A stretch of 64,000 bases of DNA from Armatimonadota bacterium (GTDB lineage Bacteria > Armatimonadota > Zipacnadia > Zipacnadales > UBA5352): positions 33,744-97,743 of the forward strand of contig JAYENL010000038.1 of the NCBI GenBank assembly GCA_034722055.1, read 5' to 3'. The notes under the pieces are model-generated. The model did no database searches. It had not been told where the DNA came from and saw only the letters and a list, made by a program, of their open reading frames with translations. Below, one piece after another: positions 18,972-42,011 of the stretch (positions are counted from its first letter, which is position 1; each line of letters starts with the position of its first letter). Both the position numbers and the translations under genes were made by a program.

Positions 18972-18992
18972 GCTGCACCTCCTCGCATCATA

Positions 18993-19775
18993 TCAGGCGG
19001 AGTCGGCCGCCGGACTGACGTCTTGGACCTCGGGCAGCTCCCGGAGCAGGCGCATCTCCAGGGAGCGGACGCCGTCGGAGAGGCGCGAGCGGGGCCGCGG
19101 CAGCTCGGCGGGGATGTCGTCCAGCACCCGTCCGGGCCGTTGCGAGAGTACCACGATCCGGTCGCCGAGGTAGGCCGCCTCCGCCACGTTGTGGGTCACG
19201 AACAGGATCGTCGTGCCCGTGCGCCGCCAGATGCCGAGCAGCTCGTCCTGCAGGCGCTCCCGGGTCTGGGCGTCGAGGGCGCCGAAGGGCTCATCCATCA
19301 GCAGCACCCTGGGCTGCAGTGCCAGCGCGCGGGCGATGGCGACGCGCTGCTTCATCCCCCCGCTCAGCTCATGGGGATGGGCGTCCTCGAAGCCCTCCAG
19401 GCCCACCATCGCGATGAGCCGCTCGCGTTCGCGGCGCCGTTCAGCCTCAGGTCGGTGGATCATGCGCATGGGGAAGTCGATGTTGCCGGCCACGCTCAGC
19501 CAGGGGAAGAGCGCGGCGTCCTGGAAGACCACCGCCCGGTCGGGTCCGGGGCTGCGCACCGGCCTGCCGTCGAAGCGAATGCTCCCCGCCGTGGAGGGCA
19601 TGAAGCCAGCCACCAGGTTCAGCAGCGTGGTCTTCCCGCAGCCGCTGGGGCCCAGCACGCACACCAGCTCGCCGGCCCGAACCGACAGCGTGACGCCGTC
19701 GAGCGCCCTGACAGCGCCATTGTCATTAGCGCCGGTGTAGGTCATTCCCACGTCCGCCAGCTCGATGAGCGCCAT
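18993..19775 (-). CDS. NitT/TauT/SsuB-family ABC ATP-binding protein
   Basis: Walker A GPSGCGKT, signature LSGGMKQR, Walker B LLMDEPFGALD. ATG 19775 overlaps the permease stop (TGATG). Confidence 0.92.
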   Translation of the reverse strand: MALIELADVGMTYTGANDNGAVRALDGVTLSVRAGELVCVLGPSGCGKTTLLNLVAGFMPSTAGSIRFDGRPVRSPGPDRAVVFQDAALFPWLSVAGNIDFPMRMIHRPEAERRRERERLIAMVGLEGFEDAHPHELSGGMKQRVAIARALALQPRVLLMDEPFGALDAQTRERLQDELLGIWRRTGTTILFVTHNVAEAAYLGDRIVVLSQRPGRVLDDIPAELPRPRSRLSDGVRSLEMRLLRELPEVQDVSPAADSA

Positions 19776-20575
19776 CAGGCTCGCACCATCCCCCACCGCT
19801 GCACTGTGGCCTCCTCGAGCCGCGCGAAGCCCAGATACTCGATGACCAGTCCCACCAGGCAGATCAGGATGATGCAGACGAAGGCCGAAGCGTAGTCCAG
19901 AGTCCACCGCGACTGGATGATGCTGTAGCCCAGCCCCGAGCCGGTGCCTACGACCATCTCAGCGGCGACGACCACGCGCCAACTGTTGCCCAGCCCGACG
20001 CGCAGGCCGCTCATCAGGTGCGGGATGGAGCCGGGCAGAAGCACGTGGAAGAAGGTCTCCCGGGGGCCGGCCCCGGCCATGCGCGCCACCCGCAGATGCT
20101 GCTCGGAGGCGCTCTTGAGGCCTGCAACCATGTTGACCGCCACCGGGGCGAGCGCCGTCATGACAATCATGAAGACCGTGGCCTCGTTCCCGATGCCGAG
20201 CAGCAGGATCGCGACGGGAATCCAGGCAAGGCCAGGGATGAGCTGCAGCACGTAGACCAGCGGCATCAGCAGCCGCTCGGCCACCCGCGACCAGCCCACC
20301 AGCGCGGCCACGGTGATGCCGGCGGAGGCGCCGATGCAAAAGCCGATGATCCAGCGGGCGAGGCTGGCCCCGGCGTGGGCGTAGATCGTATAGTCCAGCA
20401 GCCGCTCGCCGCCGAGAAGGTCGAACAGGCGGATGGCAGTCTCGATGGGCCCCGGGAAGGGCGCCCGCGGTCTGACCGCCGCGGCGACCACGGCCCAGAT
20501 GGTCAGGCCCAGCACCACCGGCGCAATGGCCCACAGGGCCCTGCTGACTGCGCCGCGCGACCGGCGCTGGGTCAT
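19775..20575 (-). CDS. NitT/TauT/SsuC-family ABC permease
   Basis: Motifs IPGLAWIP, LPGSIPHLMSGLRVGLGNSW and VVAAEM. Confidence 0.92.
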   Translation of the reverse strand: MTQRRSRGAVSRALWAIAPVVLGLTIWAVVAAAVRPRAPFPGPIETAIRLFDLLGGERLLDYTIYAHAGASLARWIIGFCIGASAGITVAALVGWSRVAERLLMPLVYVLQLIPGLAWIPVAILLLGIGNEATVFMIVMTALAPVAVNMVAGLKSASEQHLRVARMAGAGPRETFFHVLLPGSIPHLMSGLRVGLGNSWRVVVAAEMVVGTGSGLGYSIIQSRWTLDYASAFVCIILICLVGLVIEYLGFARLEEATVQRWGMVRA

Positions 20576-27527: not shown

Positions 27528-29078
27528 TCACTGCTGCCGCCGGATGGGGACAGGCTCGGCGTCCGCGATCTGGAAGGCGTAGAGCTTCGCCATGTCCAGC
27601 CGGAAGCGCAGGCGTACCGCCTGCCCGGCGTGCTGCGACAGGTCGGCGCCCTCACGCCACATAGGCGTGAGGGCCACATCGTCGGCGTGAACCGGCTCTG
27701 AGGTGGCGAGCACCTCGCCATCCAGGTCGAGAAGCTCCACGGTGACCGAGCTGCCGGCCTCGTTGGGCGGGTTCGGCGGTGCCAGACCGGCATTCGCGTT
27801 GATCTCCAGCCGGGTGCCCCGAAGCACGAAGGGCTTCGTCGTTACGGTTCCGGGCCTCCCGGCGGCGTCGAGAGAGACGAAGCCATCGAGCCGCTGCACG
27901 TAGCGGTGGATGCCGCCCTCGATTCTCCGGCCGTACCACCGGCCGATGTGCGGGGTCTCGTGCTCGACGCCGTACATCCACAGCTCGTCTCCGGCGCGGA
28001 TCATGCCGGAGCCCATGTAGGCGGAGTAGCCGATCTGATCGCCCAGGCGCCTGGCGTCGGGGTCGATGGGCACGTACGCCTGGCGGAACCGGCGGTCGAG
28101 GTGAATGCCGTCGCGGCTGGTGGCGAAGGTGATCTCGCACAGCCCGTTATCGTAGTGATGCACTGACGGGAAGAACAGGTAGACGCCCGGCGCGAAGGGA
28201 TAGATGGTGGCGGCGGAGTTGTAGAGCCCGCATCCCCACTCGCCACCGGGATCGTTGGCGTCGGGAGCGGCGATCTCCACCGCCCGCGGGAACTCGCGGA
28301 ACACCTCGGACTCGCTGCGGCCGATCCGCCGCGAGGCCTGCCCGATGGGGTTGCCATCCGCGTCTTTGCGATAGACGTTGACGCGGGTGTAGGCGACGTA
28401 CTTCTCGATGTAGGGGTCCCAGAAGCACACGTTCTGGGTGTCGGTGCCACCAGACGGGAACAGCAGGCCGTGCGGGGTGTCGATGGACCTCCAGTGGATG
28501 CCGTCGGCGGAGACCGCCCCGCTGATGCTGGTGTGCTGCGGGCAGCCCTCGTAGGGGTAGATGCGATAGAAGTCGCCGAAGATCATCTTGTACCTCTCAT
28601 CCGGCGACGCCGCGTGCGGGTCAATGAACACGGAGCCCCCGTGCACGTACCCGCCGCACTTGCCCACCATGATGAGGTTGTTATCCGCGGATCCCTGGAA
28701 CTCGAACTGCCCCAGGCTCGGCTTGTCCCAGTGGATCCCGTCCCCGGACTCCGCGTACCCCGTTCTGTCCATCCAGTGGCCCTTGATGTCGGGGTGCCAG
28801 TACCAGCTTCCGTAGTACATCCTGAACCGCTCGCCATCGCGCAGGACCGTTACGTAGCCCAGCCCCGTCGGCTCCCACGGCGCATCGGCCCGCAGCACCT
28901 CGCCGGCCCTGCGCGCGGGGTTGAGGGTGAACTGAACGCCCTGCATCGCCTCGACGATGTCCTCGTCGATGAAGAGCTGCTTGTTGCCGCCGATCTCCCG
29001 CACGTCGTCGGCCCATGCGCTGCCGCTGGCTGAAATCGCCGCCGCGAGCGTCACGATCACACCGGTCCTGGGCTTCAT
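27528..29078 (-). CDS. Secreted five-bladed beta-propeller glycosidase-like protein (GH32/43/130 clan-like)
   Basis: ATG 29078 after GGGAGG, with a signal peptide. Motifs KQLFIDE, repeated SxDGIHW, DTQN and RLDGFVSL. Confidence 0.75.
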   Translation of the reverse strand: MKPRTGVIVTLAAAISASGSAWADDVREIGGNKQLFIDEDIVEAMQGVQFTLNPARRAGEVLRADAPWEPTGLGYVTVLRDGERFRMYYGSWYWHPDIKGHWMDRTGYAESGDGIHWDKPSLGQFEFQGSADNNLIMVGKCGGYVHGGSVFIDPHAASPDERYKMIFGDFYRIYPYEGCPQHTSISGAVSADGIHWRSIDTPHGLLFPSGGTDTQNVCFWDPYIEKYVAYTRVNVYRKDADGNPIGQASRRIGRSESEVFREFPRAVEIAAPDANDPGGEWGCGLYNSAATIYPFAPGVYLFFPSVHHYDNGLCEITFATSRDGIHLDRRFRQAYVPIDPDARRLGDQIGYSAYMGSGMIRAGDELWMYGVEHETPHIGRWYGRRIEGGIHRYVQRLDGFVSLDAAGRPGTVTTKPFVLRGTRLEINANAGLAPPNPPNEAGSSVTVELLDLDGEVLATSEPVHADDVALTPMWREGADLSQHAGQAVRLRFRLDMAKLYAFQIADAEPVPIRRQQ

Positions 29079-29211
29079 CGCCAACGCCTCCCTGCGTGCC
29101 ATCTGGACCACGTCCGGGGTCTGCGGCGAACGCCGTTGGAGTAGCATCGGCTCAAAGGCACGCACGTCTTGTCCAAGCCATAGGTGGCCAGTCGCACGGC
29201 TCTGGCACGGC

Positions 29212-29967
29212 TTAGCCGAAAACCGAGTACAGGAGCACGGCCGCTGCGGCCATCAGCACGGCGTAGACAACGCGCCGGAAGAGCAGTTCGTCCACGCGGT
29301 AGTGCGCCGGCGCCCCCAGCGCCAGCCCCGCGAGGGTGAAGGGCACGCACACGGCCGCGACACGCAGGATGTCGATGGTGAGGCTCCCGGCGGCCACCCA
29401 GCGGCTGATCAGAATCGTGTTCAGCACCAGCCACAGCAGGCTCATGGTCACGCGGAAGAGACTCTTATCGGGAAGCGCCCGGGCGCAGTAGACGACCATC
29501 AGCGGCCCCCCGGCCCCGAAGGCGCCGTGGATGACGCCACCCAGCGGCAGCAGCGCGGTCATGGCGCCACCCTTCCAGCCGCTGAGCCCATCCTCGCCCA
29601 CCTCCGCGGGCATGGGATGGATGAGCCCGTGGATGCTCACACCCAGTGTGAAGACCCCGAGCACGAGCTTCAGCGGCCCCTCGGGCATGGCGCTGGCCAT
29701 CCACATGCCGACGGGCAGCCCAACGACCACGAAGCCCAGGAGCTTGCCGAAGGCGGGCCAGCGGATGTGCCGCCAGGCCTCGATGACGATGAGGACCGCC
29801 AGCAGCCAGGCCTGCATCACGAGCACGGGCACGGCCATGTCCAGGCCGATGAGCAGCGTCACGAAGGGCAGGGCCAGCACCGTAGCGCCGAAGCCGGTGA
29901 TGCTGCCCTGGAAGTTGGACAGGAAGACGACCAGGAAGACCAGCCCGTATCGCGTGAACTCGCTCAC
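29212..29967 (-). CDS. TauE/SafE-family sulfite/organosulfonate exporter
   Basis: 251-aa hydrophobic protein with QGSITGFG and GGVIHGAFGAGGPLMV. Confidence 0.88.
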   Translation of the reverse strand: MSEFTRYGLVFLVVFLSNFQGSITGFGATVLALPFVTLLIGLDMAVPVLVMQAWLLAVLIVIEAWRHIRWPAFGKLLGFVVVGLPVGMWMASAMPEGPLKLVLGVFTLGVSIHGLIHPMPAEVGEDGLSGWKGGAMTALLPLGGVIHGAFGAGGPLMVVYCARALPDKSLFRVTMSLLWLVLNTILISRWVAAGSLTIDILRVAAVCVPFTLAGLALGAPAHYRVDELLFRRVVYAVLMAAAAVLLYSVFG

Positions 29968-29979
29968 ATCGGCAACCCG

Positions 29980-30480
29980 CTACCCGAGGGTCTCCATCTC
30001 ACGGTCCCGGGCCACGTCGCCGCGGGCGCAGATCTCGTCGCGGGCCTCCTCCCAGAAGTCCAGGACCTCCTGTGGGATGCCGGGCACGTCCTGGAACTGG
30101 GCGGTCAGGAAGATCTCCGCCATACGGCAGCCCATGTCCGGCGTCACCAGGCTCTCGCCCATGCACATGACGTTGGCGTCATTTATCTTGCGGGCGAACT
30201 CCGCCGCCATGGGGCCCTCGCACGGGACGGCACAGATCCCCTCGAACTTGCCGGCCGCCAGGGCCATTCCGGTGCCGGAGCCGCAGCAGAGGATGCCGCG
30301 CTCCGCCTCCCCCTGCTGCAGCACGCGCGCGGCCCGCTCGCCGATGGACGGGAACTTCACGAAGGTGGACGTGTCGTGGCAGCCGACATCGATCACCTCG
30401 TGCCCATTCTCCTCCAGCCACTCCTTGACGGCGCTCTTGAGCAGGAAGCCCTTGACGACTGAGCCGACGACGACCTTCAT
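29980..30480 (-). CDS. RpiB/LacAB-family sugar isomerase (atypical; SqwI-like by context)
   Basis: GILCCGSGTGMALAAGK and NDANVMCMG are present. The canonical DH, HN and RHxxR motifs are absent. Confidence 0.85.
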   Translation of the reverse strand: MKVVVGSVVKGFLLKSAVKEWLEENGHEVIDVGCHDTSTFVKFPSIGERAARVLQQGEAERGILCCGSGTGMALAAGKFEGICAVPCEGPMAAEFARKINDANVMCMGESLVTPDMGCRMAEIFLTAQFQDVPGIPQEVLDFWEEARDEICARGDVARDREMETLG

Positions 30481-31433
30481 TGTGCTCCGCCCTCTCCCTG
30501 TTTGCAGGCTTGCTTGATGTGCTCCACGTTCATGTTGTGCTTGTTGAGCAGGTACTGCTCGGTGGCGACCTCACCGAACTGATCGTGCACGCCCAGCCGC
30601 TTGACGGGCGTGGGCAGCCTCTCGCAGAGCACCTCGCAGACCGCGCCACCGAGGCCGCCGATCACGCTCTGGTTCTCCACGGTCACCACCCAGCCGGTCT
30701 TGCGGGCCGACTCCAGCAGGCTCTCCTCGTCGAAGGGCTTGACCGAGGCGTAGTGGAGGTGATCCGCGGCTACCCCCTCCTCGGCCAGCTCCTCGGCAGC
30801 CTGCTTTGCGAACTGCGTCGTCCAGCCGGTGCTGACGAGCGTGGCGGCGTCGCCCTCGCTCATCTGCACAGCGGTCTCGGGGTCGAAGACGTAGTCGTCG
30901 TCGAAGATCTGCGGCTGCACCGGCCGGATCATCTGCATGTAGGCCGGGTGGCCGTACTGTGCCATCCACCGCACACAGGAGGACAGCTCGTAGACGTCGC
31001 AGGGCGAGAAGACCACCATGTTGGGCATGGCCCGCATGATGGCCAGGTCCTGGAAGCACATGTGTGTGCCGCCGTTGGCCCCGGTGGTGATGCCCGGCGC
31101 AGTGCCCACGATCTTCACGTTGGCGTCGGCGTAGGCCACCGAGATGGTGACCTGGTCGTAGACGCGGCGCGTGGCGAAGCAGGTGAAGCTGGCGCAGAAG
31201 GGGATCATCCCATCCACGGCTAGCCCGGCACCGATGCCGATCATGTCCGCCTCGGCCACCCCGGCGTCGATGAACCGCTCGGGGTGAGCCTCGGAGTAAG
31301 TGGGGATGGTCCCTGAGGCCTTGCCAAGATCGGCCTCGACGACGACGATGTCGGGGTCGCTGTCCGCCAGGTCCACCAGCGTCAGAGCGTAGACCTTGCG
31401 CATCTCAAGCTCGTGCAGTGGGACATCGGTCAT
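30477..31433 (-). CDS. Split transketolase, C-terminal subunit (SqwH-like by context)
   Basis: Motifs VEADL, GVAEADM, RVYDQV, NGGTHM and VTVEN...GGLG. Confidence 0.9.
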   Translation of the reverse strand: MTDVPLHELEMRKVYALTLVDLADSDPDIVVVEADLGKASGTIPTYSEAHPERFIDAGVAEADMIGIGAGLAVDGMIPFCASFTCFATRRVYDQVTISVAYADANVKIVGTAPGITTGANGGTHMCFQDLAIMRAMPNMVVFSPCDVYELSSCVRWMAQYGHPAYMQMIRPVQPQIFDDDYVFDPETAVQMSEGDAATLVSTGWTTQFAKQAAEELAEEGVAADHLHYASVKPFDEESLLESARKTGWVVTVENQSVIGGLGGAVCEVLCERLPTPVKRLGVHDQFGEVATEQYLLNKHNMNVEHIKQACKQGEGGAQ

Positions 31434-32293
31434 GGCTGTTCGACCTCGTAGGGGAGAGTATAGTCCTGGCGTCTCAGGCCGGACATGTACCTCTGGAAGG
31501 TCTCCTCGTCCGGGATCTTGATGTTGTGGCTGTCGGGGCGGTTCTCGGCCACCGTGCAGTCGCGGGCCTTGCAGGTATGGGCGATGATCATGGTGGGCTT
31601 GCCGGAGACCTGCTGGGCGGCCGTGATGGTGTCGTAGATGTCGTCCCAGTCATGGCCGTCCATCTCCATGACCTCCCAGTTGAAGGCCCGCCACCTGTCC
31701 ACCAGGGGCTCGAGGGTGATGACCTCGTCGGTGAACCCGTCGATCTGTAGCTTGTTGTAGTCGGTGATCGCCACGAGGTTGTCGAGCTTGTTGTGGCCGG
31801 CGAACATGCCGGCCTCCCAGATCATGCCCTCGTCGCTCTCACCGTCGCCCACGATGCAGAACACCGTGTGATCCTGGTTGCGGATCCGCGCGGCCATGGC
31901 GAAGCCGCAGGCGCACGAGAGGCCCTGTCCCAGCGACCCGGCGGTCATGTCTATGCCCGGCGTCTGCAGCCGGTCCACGTGGCTGGGCAGCCGGGTGCCG
32001 TCGGCGTTGATGGTCTTCAGCTCCTCCTTGGGGAAGAAGCCCTGATAGGCGAGGGCCACGTAGAGCACGGGGCCGGCGTGGCCCTTGGAGAGCACCAGGC
32101 GGTCGCGGCCGGGCCACTTCGGGTTGTTCGGATCGTAGCTCATGATCCGCCAGTAGAGCGTGATGATGATCTCCACCAGGCTCAGCGACCCGCCCAGGTG
32201 CCCGGAGCCCGACCGGCAGATCATGTCGGTCATCACGTACCGGAACTCGCCCGCCAGGTCGTCGAACTTCTCTCTGTCGAATTCCTCTGGCAT
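31430..32293 (-). CDS. Split transketolase, N-terminal ThDP-binding subunit (SqwG-like by context)
   Basis: Motifs SGHLGGSLS, DRLVLSKGH, GSLGQGLS and the ThDP motif GDGESDEG...DYN. Confidence 0.92.
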   Translation of the reverse strand: MPEEFDREKFDDLAGEFRYVMTDMICRSGSGHLGGSLSLVEIIITLYWRIMSYDPNNPKWPGRDRLVLSKGHAGPVLYVALAYQGFFPKEELKTINADGTRLPSHVDRLQTPGIDMTAGSLGQGLSCACGFAMAARIRNQDHTVFCIVGDGESDEGMIWEAGMFAGHNKLDNLVAITDYNKLQIDGFTDEVITLEPLVDRWRAFNWEVMEMDGHDWDDIYDTITAAQQVSGKPTMIIAHTCKARDCTVAENRPDSHNIKIPDEETFQRYMSGLRRQDYTLPYEVEQP

Positions 32294-32304
32294 GTGATCT
32301 CTCC

Positions 32305-33432
32305 TCACAACATGCTGCGATAGATCTCGCGAAGCTGATCCGGCGCAACCTCCCGGGGGTTGTTGTCCATCAGGGGGTGGAAGCTGCTCTCAACGATCTC
32401 GTCGATGTCCTCCTCCTCCACGCCGATCTCGTCCAGCGTGGTGGGCAGGGGCGAGGCGGCCTTCATCCGCGCCACCTCGTCCGCGAGCTCCAGCATATCC
32501 CCGCAGCCTGCCGCCCGGGCCAGCGCCTGCCCCCGCTCACCCATGGCCGGGGCGTTGAAGCGGATGAAGTGATCCAGCGTCATGGCGCACGCGGTTCCGT
32601 GCGGGAGGTGATAGGTGGCTGAGAACGGGAACGAGCAGGCGTGCACCGCCGCGTTCTGGGGCGCCTGGAAGGCCAGCCCACCCAGCAGCGCCGCCATCGA
32701 CATGCCCTCCCGGGCCTCCATGTCCCCCGGCTCCTGAAGCGCCCCGGGCAGGTGTTCGAAGACCAGCCTGACCGCCTCCAGCGCGAAGAGGTCGCAGATG
32801 GGCTGATGGTTCTTCGACCAGTAGCCCTCCACCGCGTGCGCCAGGGCGTCGAAGCCGGTGGAGGCGGTCACCATGGGCGGCATGGAGGCGGTCACATCGG
32901 CGTCGATGAGCGCTACGGTGGGGTAGAAGTTGTCGTGCACCAGGGGGGCCTTGACGCCCTTCTCCGGGTCGCCGAGCACCGCGTTGGGCGTCACCTCGCT
33001 GCCGGTCCCGGCCGTGGTCGGCATGGCGATCAGCGGCAGGTGCCTGTCGTCGAGCGTGGCCCCCTCCGAGTGGTACTGCCGGGCCAGGCCGCCCTGCACC
33101 GCCACTGAGCAGGCCACCTTGGCGCAGTCCATTGAGCTGCCGCCGCCGGCGGCGACGACCACGTCGATCTCCTCGTCGCGGATGGTCTTCACCAGCGCAT
33201 CCACCATCCCGACCGTGGGGTTGGGCTCCACCTCCGCGAACAATGGCGCATCAGGGCCGAGTATCCCGCGGATCTCCTCCATCAGCGGCAGCTCAGCGAG
33301 CCCGCTGTCGGTCACCAGCACCGGCGATTCGCCGAGCTCCGAGACGACTCCCGGAAGCTGCCTCCGAACCCCAGGTCCGAACACGATCTCAGTCGGCTGC
33401 CAGTACCTCCAACCATCGCCCTCAAGCTGCAA
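32305..33432 (-). CDS. Iron-containing (group III) alcohol dehydrogenase (SqwF-like by context)
   Basis: TTG 33432 after GGGAGAG. Motifs PTEIVFG, GGGSSMD, PTTAGTGSE, DALAHAVE, VHACS and PHG. Confidence 0.88.
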   Translation of the reverse strand: MQLEGDGWRYWQPTEIVFGPGVRRQLPGVVSELGESPVLVTDSGLAELPLMEEIRGILGPDAPLFAEVEPNPTVGMVDALVKTIRDEEIDVVVAAGGGSSMDCAKVACSVAVQGGLARQYHSEGATLDDRHLPLIAMPTTAGTGSEVTPNAVLGDPEKGVKAPLVHDNFYPTVALIDADVTASMPPMVTASTGFDALAHAVEGYWSKNHQPICDLFALEAVRLVFEHLPGALQEPGDMEAREGMSMAALLGGLAFQAPQNAAVHACSFPFSATYHLPHGTACAMTLDHFIRFNAPAMGERGQALARAAGCGDMLELADEVARMKAASPLPTTLDEIGVEEEDIDEIVESSFHPLMDNNPREVAPDQLREIYRSML

Positions 33433-33668
33433 TGCCCGCTCTCTCCCTGTCCGACGTGATAGTGGCGGCTGGGACGGACTTCGCGCAGCCGCCGCCAATC
33501 CCCTTCTCCGGGAGGCGCCGCCTCCGGGCAGGAGACACCGCACGCGCCGGCGAAAGGACCCTGGCGACACACGCCGGCCCTTCGGTGCCGGAGGCGTCTC
33601 GCGACGATGCAGCACTCCCGGATCGGCCGGGTGCGGCCGCGGATTGTCGGTTGCGGGGGGCGCCCGCA

Positions 33669-33685
33669 ACCTGGGTAAGCCAGGT
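33669..33685. promoter_or_regulatory. Candidate operator ACCTGG-N5-CCAGGT between divergent operons
   Basis: Perfect 6-bp inverted repeat overlapping tandem GGTAAG, next to a 9-bp-stem hairpin at 33649-33671. Confidence 0.35.
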
Positions 33686-33798
33686 AAGTACTGGGGCGCG
33701 GGCGCCCGCGCCCGCGCGTTCCACCGACTCCTGGAGTTCGCACCCGACCGGCCCGCGCAAGGGTCGGCGCCGAATCTCGCCGTCAGGAGGCCACGAGC

Positions 33799-34962
33799 AT
33801 GGCAACGACACCGTTGATCCCCGATGCTGAGTTCGAGCAGCGATGGCAGACGCTGCAGGAGAAGATGGCCGAGAACGACCTGGATGTGGTCATCGCCCAC
33901 GGCCACGAGGCCGACCCGGCCAACGTCCGCTACCTCTCGGACTACTGGCCCCTGTTCGAGACCGGGGGCGTGGCCGTGGGGCGCAGCGGTGAGCCGGTGC
34001 TCCTCATCGGTCCCGAGAGCCTCACCTTCGCTGAGGATCGCAGCCGGATCCCGACCATCATGCAGGTGCTGGAGTACCGGGAGTCCGCGGAGCCGGACTA
34101 CCCCGGGATGGAGCTGGACAGCTTCGAGGACGTCTTCGCGGCCGTGGCCGGGGGCGAGGTCAGCCGCATCGGCATCGCCGGCCTGTCGGTCATGCCCATG
34201 ACCATCTACAGCGCCATCGAGGAGGCTGCAGGCGAGGCCGAGGTGGTCCGTGCCGACGACCTGCTGACGGAGATGCGCCAGATCAAGAGCGAGAGCGAGA
34301 TCGCCTGCATGCGGGAGGCCTTCCGCATCAGCGAGGAGGCCACCGAGGTGGTCCTGGAGGAGATGAAGCCGGGGATGACCGAGCAGCAGGTGGTGGGCAT
34401 CGCCCAGGGCGCCATGTACGCGGCGGGCGCCGAGTACGAGGGCCATCCCACCTACGTCCTCAGCGCGGAGGCCAGCACCCACGCCATCGGCCGCCCCAGC
34501 CCCAAAGAGCTCCGCCAGGGCGAGATGATCCAGCTCAACATCGGGGCCCTGGTCAGCGGCTACTCCTCCTCCGTCGGCCGCCCGGTGTGCTTCGGGCCCA
34601 TGCCCGACGCCATGCGAGAGCTGGTGGAGGTGGGGCTGGAGGCGCACCACAAGACCATGGAGCTGATGCGGGCGGGCATCCCCGCCAAGGAGGTCGTCAT
34701 CAAGTACGAGGAGTTCATCGAGGAGAAGGGCTACGCCGAGAACCTGCTCTACGGCCCCTGCCACGCCATAGGGCTGATGGAGGTGGAGCGGCCCTGGATG
34801 GAGAGCAGCTCGGAGTACCTCCTCGAAGAGAACATGACCTTCCAGGTGGACACCTTCCTGTATACCGAGGACTTCGGTCTGCGATGGGAGGATGGCGTGC
34901 GCGTCACCAGCGGGGGCGTGGAGATGTTGTCGGACCGCTTCCTGGAGGTCATTGAGCTCTAA
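33799..34962 (+). CDS. M24 (pita-bread fold) creatinase/prolidase-family protein with a degenerate metal site
   Basis: AGGAGG RBS. Motifs ANVRYLS, RQIKSESEI, HAIGL and GLRWED. LNIG...YSSSVGR stands in place of DxG...YxSD. Confidence 0.85.
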   Translation: MATTPLIPDAEFEQRWQTLQEKMAENDLDVVIAHGHEADPANVRYLSDYWPLFETGGVAVGRSGEPVLLIGPESLTFAEDRSRIPTIMQVLEYRESAEPDYPGMELDSFEDVFAAVAGGEVSRIGIAGLSVMPMTIYSAIEEAAGEAEVVRADDLLTEMRQIKSESEIACMREAFRISEEATEVVLEEMKPGMTEQQVVGIAQGAMYAAGAEYEGHPTYVLSAEASTHAIGRPSPKELRQGEMIQLNIGALVSGYSSSVGRPVCFGPMPDAMRELVEVGLEAHHKTMELMRAGIPAKEVVIKYEEFIEEKGYAENLLYGPCHAIGLMEVERPWMESSSEYLLEENMTFQVDTFLYTEDFGLRWEDGVRVTSGGVEMLSDRFLEVIEL

Positions 34963-35041
34963 GGCAGTCGCAAATCACACGCCGGAAGTCGCAAGCGACG
35001 TGAACGGCTAACGCGAACAGTCGCGGTCAGGACGTGTGGCC

Positions 35042-35077
35042 GTCGCCGTTAGCTGGCAACTGATGACTGATGACTGG
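35042..35077 (+). repeat. Degenerate heptamer element, copy 4
   Basis: GTCGCCGTTAGCTGGCAACTGATGACTGATGACTGG, ending in the RBS of the deacetylase. Confidence 0.55.
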
Positions 35078-35085
35078 AGACTATC

Positions 35086-35970
35086 ATGTCCGACATCACC
35101 GTCGTGCTGGGCTTTGACATGGAGACGGATGTGGGGAGCTGGTCGCCCTACTACCAGGGCATCCAGCAGGGAACCCCGCTGATCGTGGACCTGCTGGAGG
35201 CGCAGGGGGCCACCGGCACGTTCTTCTTCACCGGCGATGCCGCCCGGCAGTTCCCGGACATCGTGCGGACCGTGGATGAGGCGGGCCATGAGGTGGGCTG
35301 CCACTCGCTGTATCACGAGACCGTGGGGGACCCCATCTTCGAGATCCCGGGCGTCAAGCCGCTGCTGCCCGAGGAGGTCCCGCTGCGGCTGCGGGTGGCC
35401 ACACAGTGGGTGGCCGAGAGCCTCGGTGACTCGCCGGTGTCCTTCCGCGCTCCCCGGCTGTGGGGCAGCACGGCCATGCTCACGGCCCTCCAGGACCTGG
35501 GGTATGTGGCCGACGCATCCTACCCCCTGTACTACTACGAGGAGCGCCTGGCGCCGTATCATCCCAGCCGCGAGGACTGGACGCAGCCCGGCGAGATGCG
35601 CATCCTGGAGATCCCCAACTTCGCCGATATGACCATCGACAGCACTGACGAGTACGGGCGCGACCGCGACCAGTGGCCGCTGTTCCGCACCGAGAGCGCC
35701 GACAGGCTCATGGCGCACATCGACGCCTTCATCGGCTACGTGCGCCAGCGGGGAGAGCCCGCGGTCCTGTGCTTCTACTTCCATCCCTGGGAGTTCGTGG
35801 AGATGCCCACCAGGATGCACTACGGCGAGGGCACCGTGATCCCGGACTACTTCCTGGTAAAGAACTGCGGCGAGTACGCGCTGGAGCAGCTCGGCGTTCT
35901 GCTGACCCTGCTCGATGAGCGCGGCGCGGACTTCACGACCGCCCGCGACCTTGCCGCGAGCTGGGACTGA
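35086..35970 (+). CDS. NodB/CE4-type (polysaccharide deacetylase family) amidohydrolase, cytoplasmic
   Basis: Motifs GFDME, GTFFFTG, GHEVGCHSLYH, SFRAP and YFHPWEF. No signal peptide. Confidence 0.88.
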   Translation: MSDITVVLGFDMETDVGSWSPYYQGIQQGTPLIVDLLEAQGATGTFFFTGDAARQFPDIVRTVDEAGHEVGCHSLYHETVGDPIFEIPGVKPLLPEEVPLRLRVATQWVAESLGDSPVSFRAPRLWGSTAMLTALQDLGYVADASYPLYYYEERLAPYHPSREDWTQPGEMRILEIPNFADMTIDSTDEYGRDRDQWPLFRTESADRLMAHIDAFIGYVRQRGEPAVLCFYFHPWEFVEMPTRMHYGEGTVIPDYFLVKNCGEYALEQLGVLLTLLDERGADFTTARDLAASWD

Positions 35971-36004
35971 CCGGGCAGCGGTCCGCGAGACAGGAGGCAT
36001 TCCG

Positions 36005-36382
36005 ATGAGCGCTGGCGAGGGACATCGCGTGTGGATCTTCCCCGACGGGGACCTCCCGCCCAGGGGCCAGCCCGACCTGCCGCTGGAGGGGCACGAGTCC
36101 CTGATCGTGCTCAATACGGGCGATGAGGACGCGCAGATCGAGATCGACATCTACTTCCCTGACCGGGAGCCCGAGGAGGGGCTGAAGGGTGAGGTGCCGG
36201 CGCGCCGGGTGCGCTGCTTCCGGCTCGACCAGCCGGTGGGCGACCGGGGCTTCGAGATCCCCTTCGGGCAGTACGCCCTGCGGCTGCGCTCCAGCGTGAA
36301 CGTGGTGGCGCAGATCGGGCGCGCCGACGTCCGCCAGGAGAGGCTGGCCTACTACACCACCATAGGCTTCGGCAGCGGCTGA
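36005..36382 (+). CDS. Anabaena sensory rhodopsin transducer (ASRT/DUF1362) family protein
   Basis: AGGAGG precedes ATG 36005. Motifs WIFPDG, GHESLIVLNTGDEDA, IYFPDREP, VPARRV and VVAQIGR. Confidence 0.85.
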   Translation: MSAGEGHRVWIFPDGDLPPRGQPDLPLEGHESLIVLNTGDEDAQIEIDIYFPDREPEEGLKGEVPARRVRCFRLDQPVGDRGFEIPFGQYALRLRSSVNVVAQIGRADVRQERLAYYTTIGFGSG

Positions 36383-36453
36383 TGCCGTTGTCGGCCCATC
36401 GAGCCTACCGCCGCTGGCTCCCGACTCGGGGACCGCATCTGGAGGATCACCAT

Positions 36454-38724
36454 ATGAAGCTGGCCGATACCATCCCGTTCTCGACCGACCTTCGCTCGCC
36501 GCTGTGGACGGAGATCGCCTGCCGCCCCGGCGCCCGCCCGGAGGCAGGCGATGTGCGCATCGACGGCTCCTGGGAGGTGGTGGCTGAGGCCGAGGAGCCG
36601 GCTGTTGCCGCCGCTGCGGATACGCTCGAGGACGTCCTTCACCTCTCATACGGCGTTCCCAGGGCCAGAGCCGCCGAGCGGCCGATCCTGCTGCGCATTG
36701 ACCCGACGCTGGGCGCCAGTCCCGAGGTTCACTCCCTGCGGGTAGGCGAGGACGGAATCGAGGTCCGGGGCGCGGGGCCAGCAGGGGTGCTGCATGGTGT
36801 CTTCCGGCTTATCGGGCTGATGCGCGAGCGTGGCGGACCCTTCGTGCCGCCCGTGGAGGAGACGCGGAGGCCGCTGTTCCGCCACCGCATCCACCGCTCG
36901 CCCCTGTCCCCGTTCTACGTGGAGGAGCTGACCGGTTATGCGGGGCCGCCCTTTGAGAGCAAGTGGCGGGAGACGGAGTGCGAGTATCCAGCGTGGCTCG
37001 AGGAGGACGCCGGGCCCGACAGCTTCTACGACGACAATCTGCTCCTGCGGCTGGCGATGCACGGCTTCAACGGCATCTGGATCCGCGGCGCGCTGCGCAA
37101 GTTCGCCAGGTGCGAGGTCTTCCCGGAGTTCGGCGCGGACGCCGAGCGCATCCTGTCCGAGCTGCAGCGCCTGTGCCGCCGGGCGGCCCGGTTCGGCATC
37201 CGCGTCTTCCTGTATCTGAACGAGCCCATGGGCCTGGATGAGGATGACCCGTTCTGGCAGCGCCACCCGCAGGTAAAGGGCCCGCTGTGTCACCTCAAGC
37301 CCGTCAACTACCTGTGCAGCAGCACGCAGGAGGTGAAGGACTACCTCCGCCAGTCCTGCGAGTACGTCTTCACGCACGTCCCGGAGCTCGCCGGCGTGCT
37401 GCTTATCACCGCCTCGGAGTATCCCAGCCATTGCTACTGCCACACCAAGCGTCCCGGCAGCGCCGAGCAGCTTGAGGAGATGATCGAGGAGGGTCAGCTC
37501 TGCCCGCGCTGCGCCGAGCGGACGCCCCAGGAGGTCGTCGGCGAGATCATCACCCTCATCCGCGACGGCGTGAAGGCCGCCAAGCCTCAGGCCGGGGTCA
37601 TCGCCTGGAACTGGAGCTGGAACATGTACGAGCCCGACCCTCAGCGGGGCGTCCTGGAGCAGCTTCCCGACGACGTCATCGTCATGGGGGATTTCGAGCG
37701 CGGGCAGCCCACCTCGGCGCTGGACTTCGAGTACACCAATGACGAGTACTCCATCAAGGTCATCGGTCCCTCGCCGCGCTTCACTGGCGTGGCGGACTTT
37801 CAGCGCGAGCGCGATCTGCCCGTCTACGCCAAGGTCCAGATCGGCACCACGCACGAGAACCCCGACGTGCCCTACCTCCCGGCGCTGCAGAAGATCGCCC
37901 GCAAGTGGCAGGCGCTCGTGGAGTCCGGCTGCACCGGCATGATGACCTGCTGGAACTTCGGCAATATGCCCTCCCTGGCCACCGAGGTCGCCGGGGAGAT
38001 GACCTGGGACCCGCAGCCACAGGTGGAAGAGGCGCTGAACAGGGTTGCCGCCAGGCACTTCGGGCCGGAGGCCGCCGGGAAGATGGTGGCCGGCTGGGAG
38101 AAGCTCTGCCAGGCGCAGGACGACTTCCCCACCAGCATCCCGGTGATGTACTACGGTCCGGTCTCGCGCGGTCCGGCCTTCCACCTGGTCTTCGACCAGA
38201 TCGACCGCAAGTTCCCCCGCTCATGGATGCTGGATACCGACGTGGAGGGCGATCGGCTGGACTGGGTGCAGCCCTTCGGTGCCCAGAAGGTGCTGGAGTG
38301 CTACCGTGCGGTTGCCGAGCAGTGGGCTGAGGGCCTGGAGCTGATGGAGCCGGCGCTGGAGGAGGCGCAGGGATGGCCCCGGGAGCAGCTTGCTCGGGAG
38401 ATCAGCGTGGCCCGGTTCTGCCTCTCACAGCTTGTCAGCGCCGCGAACGTCACGGGCTTCCTGCTGGCACGCAACGCCTTCTATGCCTCCGATGATCCCC
38501 GCGAGAGGCGCAGGCTGCTGGATCGGATGGACCTGATCTGCCGCGATGAGCTTGAGAACGCGTCGTCGGCGATCCCGCTGTGTGAGGCGGACTCCCGGCT
38601 GGGGTGGCATGGGGAGGCGTACGGGTATCTCATCAACCGGGAGCTGATCGAGCGCAAGCTGGAGGGCCTCCGGGAGATCGTGGAGCACCGCATACCCGCG
38701 GAGCGCGCGAAGCTGAGCGAGTGA
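36454..38724 (+). CDS. Uncharacterised cytoplasmic glycosidase-like protein (GH20/GH67-type N-domain plus predicted TIM barrel)
   Basis: GGAGG precedes ATG 36454. Motifs GVLHGVFRL...RRPLF, GFNGIW, FLYLNEP and DEYS. No signal peptide. Confidence 0.65.
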   Translation: MKLADTIPFSTDLRSPLWTEIACRPGARPEAGDVRIDGSWEVVAEAEEPAVAAAADTLEDVLHLSYGVPRARAAERPILLRIDPTLGASPEVHSLRVGEDGIEVRGAGPAGVLHGVFRLIGLMRERGGPFVPPVEETRRPLFRHRIHRSPLSPFYVEELTGYAGPPFESKWRETECEYPAWLEEDAGPDSFYDDNLLLRLAMHGFNGIWIRGALRKFARCEVFPEFGADAERILSELQRLCRRAARFGIRVFLYLNEPMGLDEDDPFWQRHPQVKGPLCHLKPVNYLCSSTQEVKDYLRQSCEYVFTHVPELAGVLLITASEYPSHCYCHTKRPGSAEQLEEMIEEGQLCPRCAERTPQEVVGEIITLIRDGVKAAKPQAGVIAWNWSWNMYEPDPQRGVLEQLPDDVIVMGDFERGQPTSALDFEYTNDEYSIKVIGPSPRFTGVADFQRERDLPVYAKVQIGTTHENPDVPYLPALQKIARKWQALVESGCTGMMTCWNFGNMPSLATEVAGEMTWDPQPQVEEALNRVAARHFGPEAAGKMVAGWEKLCQAQDDFPTSIPVMYYGPVSRGPAFHLVFDQIDRKFPRSWMLDTDVEGDRLDWVQPFGAQKVLECYRAVAEQWAEGLELMEPALEEAQGWPREQLAREISVARFCLSQLVSAANVTGFLLARNAFYASDDPRERRRLLDRMDLICRDELENASSAIPLCEADSRLGWHGEAYGYLINRELIERKLEGLREIVEHRIPAERAKLSE

Positions 38725-38748: not shown

Positions 38749-38868
38749 ATGGGTGATGGTAAGCGGATGAGCCGGCGCGAGGCCATTCAGCGGATGGCGC
38801 TGGCGGCGGCCGGTGTGGGTCTGTGCGTGAGCCGCGGTGCCTGGCGCCAGCAGCGGCGGACCACGTAG
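38749..38868 (+). pseudogene. Orphan twin-arginine signal peptide (39 codons), probable gene relic
   Basis: MGDGKRMSRREAIQRMALAAAGVGLCVSRGAWRQQRRTT*, following a GGGGGTG RBS-like sequence. Confidence 0.5.
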
Positions 38869-38915
38869 CAGACGTGGCCCCGAAGCCACTGCCCGCTGAC
38901 AGGGAGTCTCTCACG

Positions 38916-41900
38916 ATGCGCTGTCTGCTCCTGCTTGTCTGTCTGGTGGCACCCATCGCAGCCGCTCGCGCCGAGAGCTTCGTCGAGGGGTTCGAGGATG
39001 ATCCGGGCGACGCGTGGGAGCTGCGCAGCCATGAGCCCGGCCGGGCGGCCTTCGATGACGGCCGGCTGGTGCTGGACCTGACCGCGGCCGAGAAGGGCAA
39101 GTGGGCGTGGGCCCTGCTGCACCGCTCGATTGCCCTTCCCGCCACGGTCCGATGGCGCCAGCAGCTCGCGCACGACAGCCCCCACACCTACCTCTGCGGC
39201 CTGGCAGTGATGCGGCGGTCCGGGCAGTGGTCGGGGATCAACGTCGGACTGGGGGGCGGCGGCCTGGATGATTGCGTGGTGCTGGGAAGCCAGCGGGCGG
39301 CCGAGGGACAGGTGCGGCAGGGCCGCTGGTATCGGATGACCCTCACGCTCTCATCCAGCGAGCAGATCCTCGTGGTAACGGCGGAGGGGGCGGACGAGCC
39401 GCTGGCGACGGCCCGCGAGCACCGAGCGCTCACCCGGGGGCCCTACTTCCTGCGCTTCTTCCAGAACGACCACCGCCTGGGACGCGACATGCCGGACGAG
39501 TACGAGCAGGACCGCGGCGCCACCTGGATCGACGACCTGCAGGTGGAGGCGCAGGAGATTCAGGTTGCATCGCCTCCACCACCGGGAACCAGCAATCCCC
39601 TGGCGATTCCGGTGGTCTACAACCGCGCCACGCGGTGGTTGACGAGCGAGGATGGGCTCTCGGGCGGCTGCATCGCCTGGGAGGCGGTCGGGGAGATGCT
39701 GCTGACCGGCGAGTCCGGCGTCTCCCGCTGGCTGCGGCTGCGCCGGTGGGTGCTGTCGAAGGTTCCCCACTGGCCGGACCAGCCCACCATCCGGCACGTG
39801 GACGGCCGGACCACCGACTTCCTGCTGCCTGAGGGCGAGACGGAGGCCACCTTCGCGCTGCGGGCCCTGCAGTGGAACCTGGACCAGCATCCCCGGTTGC
39901 GATGGTCGGCTCAGCCACGGGGCGTCTCCTGGTCGATGGCCGTGAGCGCTACGGACGGCGTGCATCCCTTCGTGTGGCGACTGGCGGAGACCGAGGAGGC
40001 CCACGCGCCCTCGGAGGGGGAGCTCGACCTCCGCGAGATCTATCGCGCCTCCGGACGTCCGAATGCGCGCGCGGAGATGGACTTCGTGATCACTATCCGA
40101 GCCACTGACAACGCTGGCCGGCGGCCGGGGCTGGCGCTGAGGCTCATCATGCCGGGCGCCAACGCCGTGCTCCCTCGCACTCCGGTAGTCGTTCCCGTGG
40201 ATGCCGCCCGGCAGGGCGTGCCACTGGAGGCGGTCGTTGTCGGCTCAGACGGTGCGCTCATGGCTGACGGACAGGTTCAGGCCACCGTGGATGGCCGACC
40301 CGTTGATCTGCAGCTCGTTGACGAGAGCGGCCTGCGCGGGGCGGAGCTGGTCGCCCTGCCAGTTGGTGGTCACGAGATCCCGCTCCGGGCCACGAACGCT
40401 GACGGCGAGACGCTGGCCACCGGCAGTGCCACAGTCACTGTGACAGACCTGGACTTCCTCAGCCATTACGAGCGCGCCAAGCGCAGCTACTGCACCCCCG
40501 ATGGCGAGGCGGCCGGCCCGCTGCTGGGCGACCTGTTTGCCTGGGTGCTCTACGAGGACATCGCCGGTCCGGACCGCCGCATGATCCTGGGCCTGGACGA
40601 CTACCGTCGCTGCGCGCGGGCCGGAGCGGATGTTACGCAGACCAAGTGGCGGGTGATGCCGCGGGCGGCCATCGAGCGCTACGTGGAGCACCTGGCTGAG
40701 AGCGGCGTCGAGGTCATCCGTATCACCCCGAACGTGCAGGTGCGCGAGTACTACCTCGACGCCGGTGGGCACCTGGCGATGCACGGGCTGGAGCAGCTCA
40801 GCGACATCCTTGACGCGGGGCGCCGACACGGAATTCGGGCGGTCATCAACCTCTTCCACTACCCCTACAACCAGTTCGGCCCGCCGGTGAACGCCTACTT
40901 CGAGGCCGGCTATCCGGACGAGATGGGGTGGCGCAGCGACGAGATGTGGGCCCTGCTGTCGCAGTATCTGCACGAGCTGCTGGGCTTCATCGGCTCCGAT
41001 CCGGCGGTAATGGCCTACACCGTCATGGGCGAGAACGACCAGGTCCTGCCGGTGGAGTGGCTCAACCGAGCTCACGACTTCATCAAGCAGCGTGCGCCGC
41101 GGCAGATGGTGGTGCTCGAGCAGGGCGGCGACATCTTCAACTGCCGCGAGGGGCACCCCGCAAGCTACGCTGAGTTCGCTCCCGCCACCGACGGCGGAGT
41201 GGGGTATCGGGCGTATCAGACCAGGCAGTACCCCACGGACTGCTTCATGGCGGTCTGTGCCCGCTTCTATGACCTGGCGCCGCCGAGCTACCATGGAGAG
41301 ATGGCGTGTGGCATCAAGGTGACCCCGCAGTTTCAGGTCAAGCTGCGGGACGCCATGGGTCTGGCGCTGACCCTGCAGCAGACGATGGCCATCTCGTGGT
41401 CGGCCCCGCCGCTGGAGGAGCTGCGGGGGGCTTTTGCCGAGGCGGGGAATCTGGTAGACTGGACGCGATTCCGCCGGGCGCAGCCGCCGGTGGCCATGGT
41501 AGTTGACACGATAGACGGCGAGACCGCCCGCCGCCTGGTGGAGTACGAGGAGATGCTCCAGGCGCTGGCGGTGGACTGCGAGTACATCGGGCCTGAGGCC
41601 GACCGCAACGGCTACCTGGTGACGCTGGACGCGCGAGAGGAGATCCCGCCGAAGGCTGAGGAGGCGCTGCGGCGGGCGGCAGAGGCGGCATCGCCGCTGC
41701 GCGTGAGCGCGGGGAATCACACCACCTACGCACTCTCGTCGGATCGGCGCTGGATGGTCGCCTACGTACGCAACGCCACGCGCTACGAGGTGATGGAGTG
41801 TGACATTCGCGCCGTCGAGCGCTGCCGAATGCCGGACCGACCCAGGCGGCTGCGCGTGACGCTCCAGGGGTTTGGGGCCTCCTGTCGCTATCGCGTCTGG

Positions 41901-42011
41901 GATGCCGCAACGGCGGCGGTGGTGCAGGAGGGGAGTGTCCGGGAAGGTGTGGAGCTAGATCTGGGAGAAACCAACATCGATGTGCTCGTCGGCGTCTTCC
42001 CCCAGGAGTAA
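38916..42011 (+). CDS. Secreted multidomain protein with a GH5/clan GH-A-like catalytic domain
   Basis: ATG 38916 after GGGAG, with a signal peptide. GVEVIRI...LEQLSDILDAGRRHGIRAVINLF...DPAVMAYTVMGE is clan GH-A-like. Confidence 0.65.
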   Translation: MRCLLLLVCLVAPIAAARAESFVEGFEDDPGDAWELRSHEPGRAAFDDGRLVLDLTAAEKGKWAWALLHRSIALPATVRWRQQLAHDSPHTYLCGLAVMRRSGQWSGINVGLGGGGLDDCVVLGSQRAAEGQVRQGRWYRMTLTLSSSEQILVVTAEGADEPLATAREHRALTRGPYFLRFFQNDHRLGRDMPDEYEQDRGATWIDDLQVEAQEIQVASPPPPGTSNPLAIPVVYNRATRWLTSEDGLSGGCIAWEAVGEMLLTGESGVSRWLRLRRWVLSKVPHWPDQPTIRHVDGRTTDFLLPEGETEATFALRALQWNLDQHPRLRWSAQPRGVSWSMAVSATDGVHPFVWRLAETEEAHAPSEGELDLREIYRASGRPNARAEMDFVITIRATDNAGRRPGLALRLIMPGANAVLPRTPVVVPVDAARQGVPLEAVVVGSDGALMADGQVQATVDGRPVDLQLVDESGLRGAELVALPVGGHEIPLRATNADGETLATGSATVTVTDLDFLSHYERAKRSYCTPDGEAAGPLLGDLFAWVLYEDIAGPDRRMILGLDDYRRCARAGADVTQTKWRVMPRAAIERYVEHLAESGVEVIRITPNVQVREYYLDAGGHLAMHGLEQLSDILDAGRRHGIRAVINLFHYPYNQFGPPVNAYFEAGYPDEMGWRSDEMWALLSQYLHELLGFIGSDPAVMAYTVMGENDQVLPVEWLNRAHDFIKQRAPRQMVVLEQGGDIFNCREGHPASYAEFAPATDGGVGYRAYQTRQYPTDCFMAVCARFYDLAPPSYHGEMACGIKVTPQFQVKLRDAMGLALTLQQTMAISWSAPPLEELRGAFAEAGNLVDWTRFRRAQPPVAMVVDTIDGETARRLVEYEEMLQALAVDCEYIGPEADRNGYLVTLDAREEIPPKAEEALRRAAEAASPLRVSAGNHTTYALSSDRRWMVAYVRNATRYEVMECDIRAVERCRMPDRPRRLRVTLQGFGASCRYRVWDAATAAVVQEGSVREGVELDLGETNIDVLVGVFPQE

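Follow-up and report, generated by a model that had tools for sequence, protein, structure and literature searches.

A divergent sulfo-transketolase-like operon beside a conserved M24/N-deacylase cassette in one Armatimonadota genus

Two divergent operons in an Armatimonadota contig

The window analysed here is a 64,000-nucleotide stretch of an Armatimonadota bacterium (contig C38, JAYENL010000038.1, positions 33744-97743 of the 6.14-Mb, 92.7%-complete assembly GCA_034722055.1), and its closest named relatives are Armatimonadota metagenome-assembled genomes. The sequencing runs with strong DNA matches are brine metagenomes of a single study that may be the source itself, and habitat is therefore left out of the argument; no RNA run with a match is listed. 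It carries nine genes in two operons that diverge from a 366-bp spacer. The left operon encodes a split transketolase (TK), an RpiB-family isomerase, a metal-dependent alcohol dehydrogenase (Fe-ADH) and a TauE-family exporter, and the right operon an M24-fold enzyme, a NodB-type deacylase, an ASRT-family protein and a glycoside-hydrolase-like protein. An original prediction, made without database searches, had named these nine genes, their order, their families and the spacer. The positions agree and Pfam supports each family; since orthologues of the window genes are 55-93% identical and keep the same order, the nine genes can be regarded as real. The features are as follows.

29212-29967, minus strand: TauE/SafE-family membrane protein, probable C2 sulfonate (isethionate) exporter by predicted function (PF01925, 78.9 bits)
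29980-30480, minus strand: RpiB-family isomerase of a distinct GSVVKG clade, candidate SqwI-like sulfoerythrose/sulfoerythrulose isomerase (PF02502)
30477-31433, minus strand: split transketolase TK-C, SqwH-like C-terminal subunit (PF02779/PF02780)
31430-32308, minus strand: split transketolase TK-N, SqwG-like N-terminal subunit (PF00456)
32305-33432, minus strand: Fe-ADH, candidate sulfoacetaldehyde reductase (TauF/SqwF-like)
33433-33798, no strand: divergent spacer, 366 bp
33799-34962, plus strand: M24-fold enzyme without the peptidase dimetal site, anchor of the right cassette (PF00557 and PF01321)
35086-35970, plus strand: CE4/NodB-type N-deacylase with a D-x-E variant of motif 1 (PF01522)
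35999-36382, plus strand: ASRT-family small β-sandwich protein, predicted sugar binder (PF07100, 105 bits)
36454-38724, plus strand: unassigned glycoside-hydrolase-like protein with GH20 domain 2, TIM barrel and helical domain (longest open reading frame from 36382)

The longest open reading frame of the hydrolase (36382-38724) would encode 780 residues; a ribosome-binding-site-like stretch and the starts of its orthologues make 36454 the likelier start. The Fe-ADH gene begins with TTG and has a purine-rich stretch resembling a ribosome-binding site upstream. The soluble proteins had been described as lacking signal peptides, in line with a crude N-terminal hydropathy scan (not SignalP) that revealed no signal-like stretch in TK-N, TK-C, Fe-ADH, M24, NodB, ASRT or the hydrolase; the value of 2.0 obtained for RpiB is owed to its first β-strand. 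The nine-gene locus contains no regulator or importer gene.

The left operon resembles a sulfo-transketolase module

The sulfo-TK route, as set out in the accessible parts of PMC11659671, PMC12890257 and PMC9594981, employs the isomerase SqvD, the split TK SqwGH, the PF02502 isomerase SqwI, the PF00465 reductase SqwF and the exporter SqwE, or alternatively SqwD/SqwKL; SqwE is described there as a sulfite/sulfonate transporter (PMC12890257). Like the system of Clostridium sp. MSTE9, the left operon combines a split TK, a PF02502 isomerase without phosphate-binding residues, a PF00465-type reductase (the Fe-ADH, compare SqwF) and a membrane exporter in one operon. Our Sqw references are metagenome gene clusters (L146-L160), not the characterised MSTE9 proteins, and these contain GH31, an SftI-type isomerase (405 bits), split TK, a GSDKSG RpiB, an exporter, an aldehyde dehydrogenase, a CoA ligase and SqwD/K/L. 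In comparison, the window proteins belong to a separate clade, with TK subunits 38-50% and RpiB ~46% identical to the cluster-defined SqwG/H/I; the RpiB motif is GSVVKG rather than GSDKSG; no SqvD, sulfoquinovosidase or transporter is linked; and TauE stands where the cluster-defined variants carry a MatC_N/CitMHS exporter. The window also comes from a phylum that is absent from the pathway distribution in the accessible part of PMC12890257, and Armatimonadota are unmentioned in the recent papers examined.

A metagenome scan returned 581 relatives; the best 80 were kept, and among them are 13 loci of the window clade and the reference clusters described above. The window RpiB, in which GSVVKG replaces GSDH, is a member of this tight clade. 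It keeps the catalytic Cys and, as in cluster-defined SqwI, lacks the His of GSDH, the His of EHND and the C-terminal GRHxRR, which we take to be the phosphate-binding residues of ordinary RpiB. In a quick tree of 64 rows, the clade and cluster-defined SqwI lie together on one side of a branch with a Shimodaira-Hasegawa-like approximate likelihood ratio (SH-aLRT) support of 97, opposite the DH-motif RpiB proteins. The DerI model scores 75.6 bits (cut-off 240).

Among solved structures, the Fe-ADH matches 6JKO best (PDB; 310.7 bits, full length), and the next match reaches 198.3 bits. This structure is the sulfoacetaldehyde reductase BkTauF (6JKO/6JKP; PMC6616044), and the window enzyme keeps its metal ligands and the equivalents of F252, H261 and F265. 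The contexts differ: taurine nitrogen assimilation for BkTauF, sugar catabolism for the window enzyme. TK-N is 47-50% identical to cluster-defined SqwG and TK-C 38-44% identical to SqwH. However, TK-N is also 44-49% identical to several other split TKs, and percent identity therefore does not discriminate. In a TK tree of 33 rows, the window clade is monophyletic (100/100) and sister (98/93) to a group of SqwGH, L151 and L254; nine other split TKs fall outside the window clade in this tree, which is without verified AptAB or DerI sequences.

From the observed gene content, residues, trees and linkage counts we infer all activities and substrates given in this report. In the left operon, the split TK would act on a 6-sulfonated ketohexose (most likely 6-deoxy-6-sulfofructose) and pass two of its carbons to glyceraldehyde-3-phosphate. 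The RpiB-clade enzyme would then isomerise the C4 sulfo-aldose, and a second TK round would yield sulfoacetaldehyde, which the Fe-ADH would convert to isethionate for export by TauE.

Neighbours of the transketolase clade and candidate feeders

Genome surveys gave the TK clade in 13 of 58 genomes of the order, 8 of 271 of the phylum and 1 of 301 Planctomycetota, and in none of 401 sampled Bacillota; a second Planctomycetota match (G704) is of SqwI type and not of the TK clade. The sole Bacillota match to the ADH (G047) is without the TauF-type motif. The operon is fragmented in some relatives, with RpiB and TauE alone at L048 (G003) and a truncated ADH and split TauE at L049 (G008).

The comparison covered 29 loci of the TK clade; many are short, and 17 extend at least 1.7 kb upstream. 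TauE is present in 19 and ADH in 11. One locus, L142, has neighbours 57% and 53% identical to cluster-defined SqwD and SqwK and a 520-bit match to the SauS model, and is the only one with SqwD/K-like genes. L139 alone carries a GH188-like gene; the top PDB matches of its product are the GH188 SqgA structures, and the Arg and Lys assigned to the sulfonate in the accessible part of PMC10755693 are retained in it. SftI/fucose-isomerase-like genes occur in four loci, and the isomerases beside L047, L133 and L264 score 119-167 bits on the SftI model. NagB-like genes likewise occur in four loci (L138, L139, L142 and L266), Amidohydro_2 genes in three, and L138 has both a NagB-like and a fucose-isomerase-like gene.

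The NagB-like proteins match glucosamine-6-phosphate deaminases best and keep the catalytic Asp/His/Glu motifs, with an altered phosphate loop. They stand beside the TK clade where a sulfoquinovose (SQ) isomerase is expected, and may be either SQ isomerases of a new type or deaminases of sulfoquinovosamine. They lie at L139:3523-13233, L142:546-2241, L266:8558-15300 and L138:2-733, usually with Amidohydro_2. A class II fructose-bisphosphate-aldolase-family gene is found in five of the 29 loci (L139, L142, L264, L265 and L266), and none was found in the window's own genome. The GH188-like proteins of L237, L238:1205-2302, L239-L246 and L139:10511-11551 all keep the sulfonate Arg/Lys and have Cys in place of Tyr136, a position that contacts the C2 hydroxyl in GH188; the variants described in the accessible part of PMC11465081 are others than this exchange. 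In the window's family, the GH188-like genes come after a DUF4127 gene.

The window had been said to hold no recognisable feeder for the left operon, and we likewise found no GH31/GH188 sulfoquinovosidase and no SqvD in it. GH188-like genes are present in 11 of 16 other family genomes, the same-genus one included. In the present assembly, the genes that neighbour it in relatives (DUF4127 and one flanking gene) end at the repeat-bearing ends of contigs C10 and C273, and in the contigs of four runs holding the window the flanking gene is covered and the GH188-like gene is not, at this organism's depth. Such a hole in the contigs is no proof that the gene is lost rather than unassembled here. The left cluster contains no SqvD/SftI isomerase. 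The best isomerase in the genome, a fucose-isomerase-like protein on C154, is 23-25% identical to SqvD, scores 121 bits for a partial region (cut-off 700), is 29% identical to the L264 isomerase and sits in a kinase/GH38 operon; unlinked NagB-like proteins are encoded on C186 and C314. The feeder of the left module is encoded elsewhere in this genome or missing from the assembly, with the SftI-like protein of C154 and the NagB-like proteins of C186 and C314 as unlinked candidates.

The right operon is a conserved multi-phylum cassette

The right operon is a conserved, multi-phylum and uncharacterised cassette that combines a uronidase/hexosaminidase-fold hydrolase, an N-deacylase, a non-peptidase M24 protein and ASRT. 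We confirmed 123 orthologues of the M24 protein, 53-91% identical, in Armatimonadota, Ratteibacteria, Omnitrophota, Chloroflexota, Planctomycetota and Limnochordia, and found no close relative in the plasmid collection. In the best 80 loci, kept for counts, the partners are NodB (41), the hydrolase (39) and ASRT (23), and in 20 loci a creatininase-family gene takes NodB's slot directly after M24. Other recurrent neighbours are PIG-L, M20, GHL6/GH29, Zn-dehydrogenases, RhaT, DUF6786 and sugar ATP-binding cassette (ABC) transporters. In G395, a genome from Bacillota, the hydrolase gene comes first and is followed by M24, NodB, a Zn-ADH, an FGGY kinase and a second Zn-ADH.

The M24 protein shares the creatinase-N and pita-bread fold with prolidase/aminopeptidase P, creatinase and the ectoine hydrolase EutD/DoeA, and creatinase and EutD are among its structural neighbours (TM-scores 0.74-0.80). 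Unlike these enzymes, to whose solved members it is 17-24% identical, it has three of the five metal ligands and both substrate-His positions changed. The dimetal positions read D>N247, D>S258, H322 (kept), E>D351 and E364 (kept), which departs from the D-D-H-E-E site of M24B Xaa-Pro peptidases, and the substrate-binding His of aminopeptidase P aligns with Ile230. Acidic residues E54, E73, E212, E328, D351 and E364 are near-invariant among 38 wider homologues. At L104, L113, L119, L122, L124, L125, L128, L129 and L225, loci from Planctomycetota, Chloroflexota and Bacillota, the M24 gene is accompanied by a distant paralogue of itself (~29%), which suggests two sequential C-N cleavages.

NodB has CE4 motifs 1-5 (Asp pair, HxxxH, RxP, His), with the D-x-E variant of motif 1; its DMETD, HxxxH, FRxP and YxHPWE motifs are conserved in most of 45 homologues, and every named subfamily model scores below its cut-off. 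ASRT proteins have been proposed as sugar binders (PMC2739507, in its accessible part). The AlphaFold2 model of the hydrolase (mean pLDDT 87.9, 13-sequence alignment) matches GH138 (Z 19.6, root mean square deviation 5.3, 590 aligned residues) and GH67 (Z 17.0), followed by GH115, GH84 and GH20. It thus resembles the GH138/GH67/GH115 uronidases and GH20/GH84 hexosaminidases in its N-terminal GH20 domain-2 module, TIM barrel and helical domain, and differs from them in its 9-16% identity, a conserved Cys/His cluster (C288, C327, H330, C350 and C353), the lack of a signal peptide and the lack of a family assignment. Its sequence matches are essentially limited to the N-terminal region, where Pfam recognises GH20 domain 2.

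We slightly favour the view that the cassette is a cytoplasmic route for N-acylated, probably acidic, amino sugars. The hydrolase would release an N-acylated amino sugar from microbial glycans, the CE4 (or creatininase-like) enzyme would take off the N-acyl group, and the acidic, single-His site of M24 would cut the remaining C-N bond, with no kinase involved. Deacylation followed by kinase-free nitrogen removal, the chemistry first put forward for these genes, is reasonable. As to the exact substrate, the fold matches and the wide distribution make a C6-carboxylate a better fit than a C6-sulfonate, and an N-acetyl-hexosaminuronic sugar, which would yield a keto-uronate and ammonia, is our best, if tentative, guess.

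In the genomes compared, the two operons are neighbours in a single genus

The right operon had been interpreted as a dedicated entry module that replaces the missing feeders of the left. The linkage data do not bear this out, and the prediction had itself named unlinked operons in other genomes as grounds for its refutation. In the M24 flanks, fetched up to 10 kb (70 of 80 loci with at least 1.5 kb upstream), a TK operon lies at 1 of the 80 loci; conversely, 1 of the 29 TK-clade loci has the M24 cassette. Each time it is the same-genus genome, and a conserved physical linkage of the M24 and TK operons was rejected. The predicted co-occurrence of M24, NodB and ASRT with sulfo-TK genes is, at the level of adjacency, confined to these loci. 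Across the 58 order genomes, M24 is present in 33, the TK clade in 13 and both in 12, with the two adjacent in 2; 21 of the 33 M24-positive genomes are without the TK clade. When 21 sulfoglycolysis-related markers were searched around 90 M24-related loci (E<1e-10), they were found at L050 only, apart from weak generic Gfo/ADH matches; one partial TauE lies upstream at L101. An operator common to the unlinked operons was not detected among palindromes and 7-mers in 8 ADH/TK-operon and 17 M24 upstream regions, which is a weak test. A GH188-like gene is also present in the same-genus genome that has both operons, where the expected anti-correlation with a sulfoquinovosidase therefore fails.

Some of the distribution does point the other way. 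M24 is present in 12 of the 13 TK-positive order genomes (Fisher p=0.004, with kinship and genome size ignored) and in two of three distant Armatimonadota TK carriers, and with such nesting a functional link between distant loci retains a small probability. Within the family, the co-occurrence gives p=0.25. TK-clade genomes without an M24 match are G015 (87% complete), G845 (97%) and G695; outside the order, M24 occurs in two TK-clade genomes and not in two others (one 97% complete). It is fairly probable that the left and right operons are two separately evolving catabolic modules that came to lie side by side in one Armatimonadota genus. No other genus in the comparison shows the pair together, and a single pathway is probably not what the locus encodes.

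Candidate sugars and competing explanations

The residues, the RpiB tree and the neighbours of relatives, taken together, make a sulfonated substrate likely for the left module, and on comparative grounds the operon itself is probably a divergent sulfo-TK module. The initial reading of the left operon thus draws support from these three lines, and the TK tree does not decide on it. Several points weigh against it. In the window ADH and every clade member checked, Asn occupies the position of BkTauF T257, so that two of three substrate residues (F252 and F265) are kept, and the T257A exchange almost abolishes BkTauF activity (PMC6616044, accessible part). The L254 TK, which groups with SqwGH, comes from a phosphotransferase-system-type sugar operon, and the sulfo-TKs are thus not one proven clade. 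The TK-linked SftI-like isomerases are far under the model cut-off of 700 and 21-23% identical to SqvD. Finally, neither a five-sequence YihQ profile nor the GH188-like orthologue search found a sulfoquinovosidase in the assembly, which leaves the left module's feeder unexplained. The indecisive TK tree, the replaced T257 and the long stem to the clade would also fit an operon for a non-sulfonate substrate, such as another non-phosphorylated or a phosphonate acid sugar, with the sulfonate likeness reflecting ancestry only; the ADH scores 226 bits on the phosphonate-associated Fe-ADH model versus 195 on SarD, all below cut-offs. We consider this unlikely, given that TauE is retained in most loci, that SqwD/K-like, GH188-like and SftI-like genes neighbour the clade in independent loci, and that BkTauF is far ahead among solved structures.

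How the left module is fed bears on the candidate sugar. N-acetyl-6-sulfoquinovosamine had been suggested as one candidate substrate, a sugar type said to be reported from archaeal S-layer glycans. The accessible part of PMC9943897 reports 6-sulfo-QuiN in the S-layer glycans of the haloarchaeon H. hispanica, and names it as the free amine, not the N-acetylated form. In the literature searched, reviews included but most subscription papers not, we found no catabolic route for 6-sulfoquinovosamine and no occurrence of the word 'sulfoquinovosamine'. That the right operon is the entry module, with the hydrolase freeing the N-acetylated sugar, NodB deacetylating it and M24 deaminating/isomerising it to sulfofructose for conversion to isethionate by the left operon, is improbable. 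The divergent arrangement shared by two genomes of this genus, M24 in all but one TK-positive order genome, the lack of a sulfoquinovosidase in the assembly and of a kinase in the cassette here, the non-canonical M24 site and the haloarchaeal sugar are in its favour. It is opposed by the rarity of adjacency, the many M24 genomes without the TK clade, the absence of sulfoglycolysis markers around M24 in other phyla, the FGGY kinase after the cassette in G395, the GH188-like gene in the same-genus genome and the other entry candidates of the TK clade elsewhere. A variant in which the cassette could accept both C6-carboxylate and C6-sulfonate amino sugars is conceivable. More broadly, the sugar broken down by the divergent sulfo-TK clade could be an amino-sulfosugar, namely 6-sulfoquinovosamine with or without an N-acetyl group. 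It would be deacylated and then turned into sulfofructose by a deaminating isomerisation, through a NagB-like protein and an amidohydrolase in some lineages and possibly through M24/NodB in this genus. We regard this as doubtful; for such an entry, the NagB-like protein and amidohydrolase are a more plausible lead than the M24 cassette. A route by a NagB-like deaminase and Amidohydro_2 deacylase, perhaps with the GH188-like Cys-variant glycosidase and here with the NagB-like protein of C186, would agree with the four TK-clade loci, three with an amidohydrolase, with the deaminase matches, conserved catalytic motifs and altered phosphate loop, with a close NagB-like orthologue that adjoins a PIG-L deacetylase in G039 and with the Tyr136>Cys exchange. 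We hold this specific route to be unlikely too, as 50 of the 58 order genomes encode NagB-like proteins of 30-40% identity whether or not they have the TK, the NagB fold could equally serve as an aldose-ketose isomerase for plain SQ, fucose-isomerase-like genes are as frequent (L138 has both), and two of the only four loci are unbinned metagenome contigs. For the right cassette, removal of amidine or amide substituents (acetamidino groups, amino-acid amides of uronic acids) from surface-glycan sugars, with M24 as a creatinase/EutD-like amidinohydrolase, would fit the structural neighbours, the creatininase-family partners and the co-occurrence of several deacylase folds (CE4, PIG-L, M20). Yet M24 has Ile230 at the aminopeptidase P substrate-binding His position, and the aligned His is presumably catalytic in creatinase and EutD. 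Moreover, no amine-removing enzyme recurs in the operons, which would leave the freed amino sugar without a next step. Sugars of this kind do exist, ManNAc3NAmA6Thr being an example of an acetamidino/amidated uronic sugar (PMC11407970, accessible part). We give this explanation a low probability.

If the sulfo-TK reading of the left operon is right, the operon extends sulfoglycolysis to Armatimonadota as a second divergent sulfo-TK clade. The entry step of this clade would then look interchangeable, with SftI-like or NagB-like isomerases and a GH188-like glycosidase, and the NagB-like proteins can therefore be tested as new SQ isomerases or sulfoquinovosamine deaminases. The right cassette, for which no description was found in the literature searched, offers a lead of its own. 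Its non-peptidase M24 family, whose deacylase partners are interchangeable, and its unassigned glycosidase family are met again and again in Armatimonadota, Omnitrophota, Ratteibacteria, Chloroflexota, Planctomycetota and Bacillota; the cassette may reveal the recycling of N-acylated acidic sugars from microbial cell surfaces.

Spacer and flanking genes

The divergent spacer is 239 bp in the same-genus genome, and the ~127 bp by which the window spacer is longer are GC-rich and palindromic. No sigma70-like site was found in the spacer, and the promoter/terminator scan equalled shuffles at best. An SsuA/TauA-type ABC transporter (17958-20575, minus strand) lies ~9 kb from the TK operon; its binding protein scores 154 bits on the aliphatic-sulfonate model (cut-off 163.5). 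The protein encoded at 27528-29165 (minus strand) is without a Pfam or NCBIfam match. Read from a later start it has a likely signal peptide, the genome encodes about a dozen paralogues of it, and it is found near the operon in the same-genus genome too. Directly downstream of the right cassette, 38823-42011 (plus strand) encodes a large protein with a likely signal peptide and no family match, which among the M24 loci compared is near M24 only in the same-genus genome.

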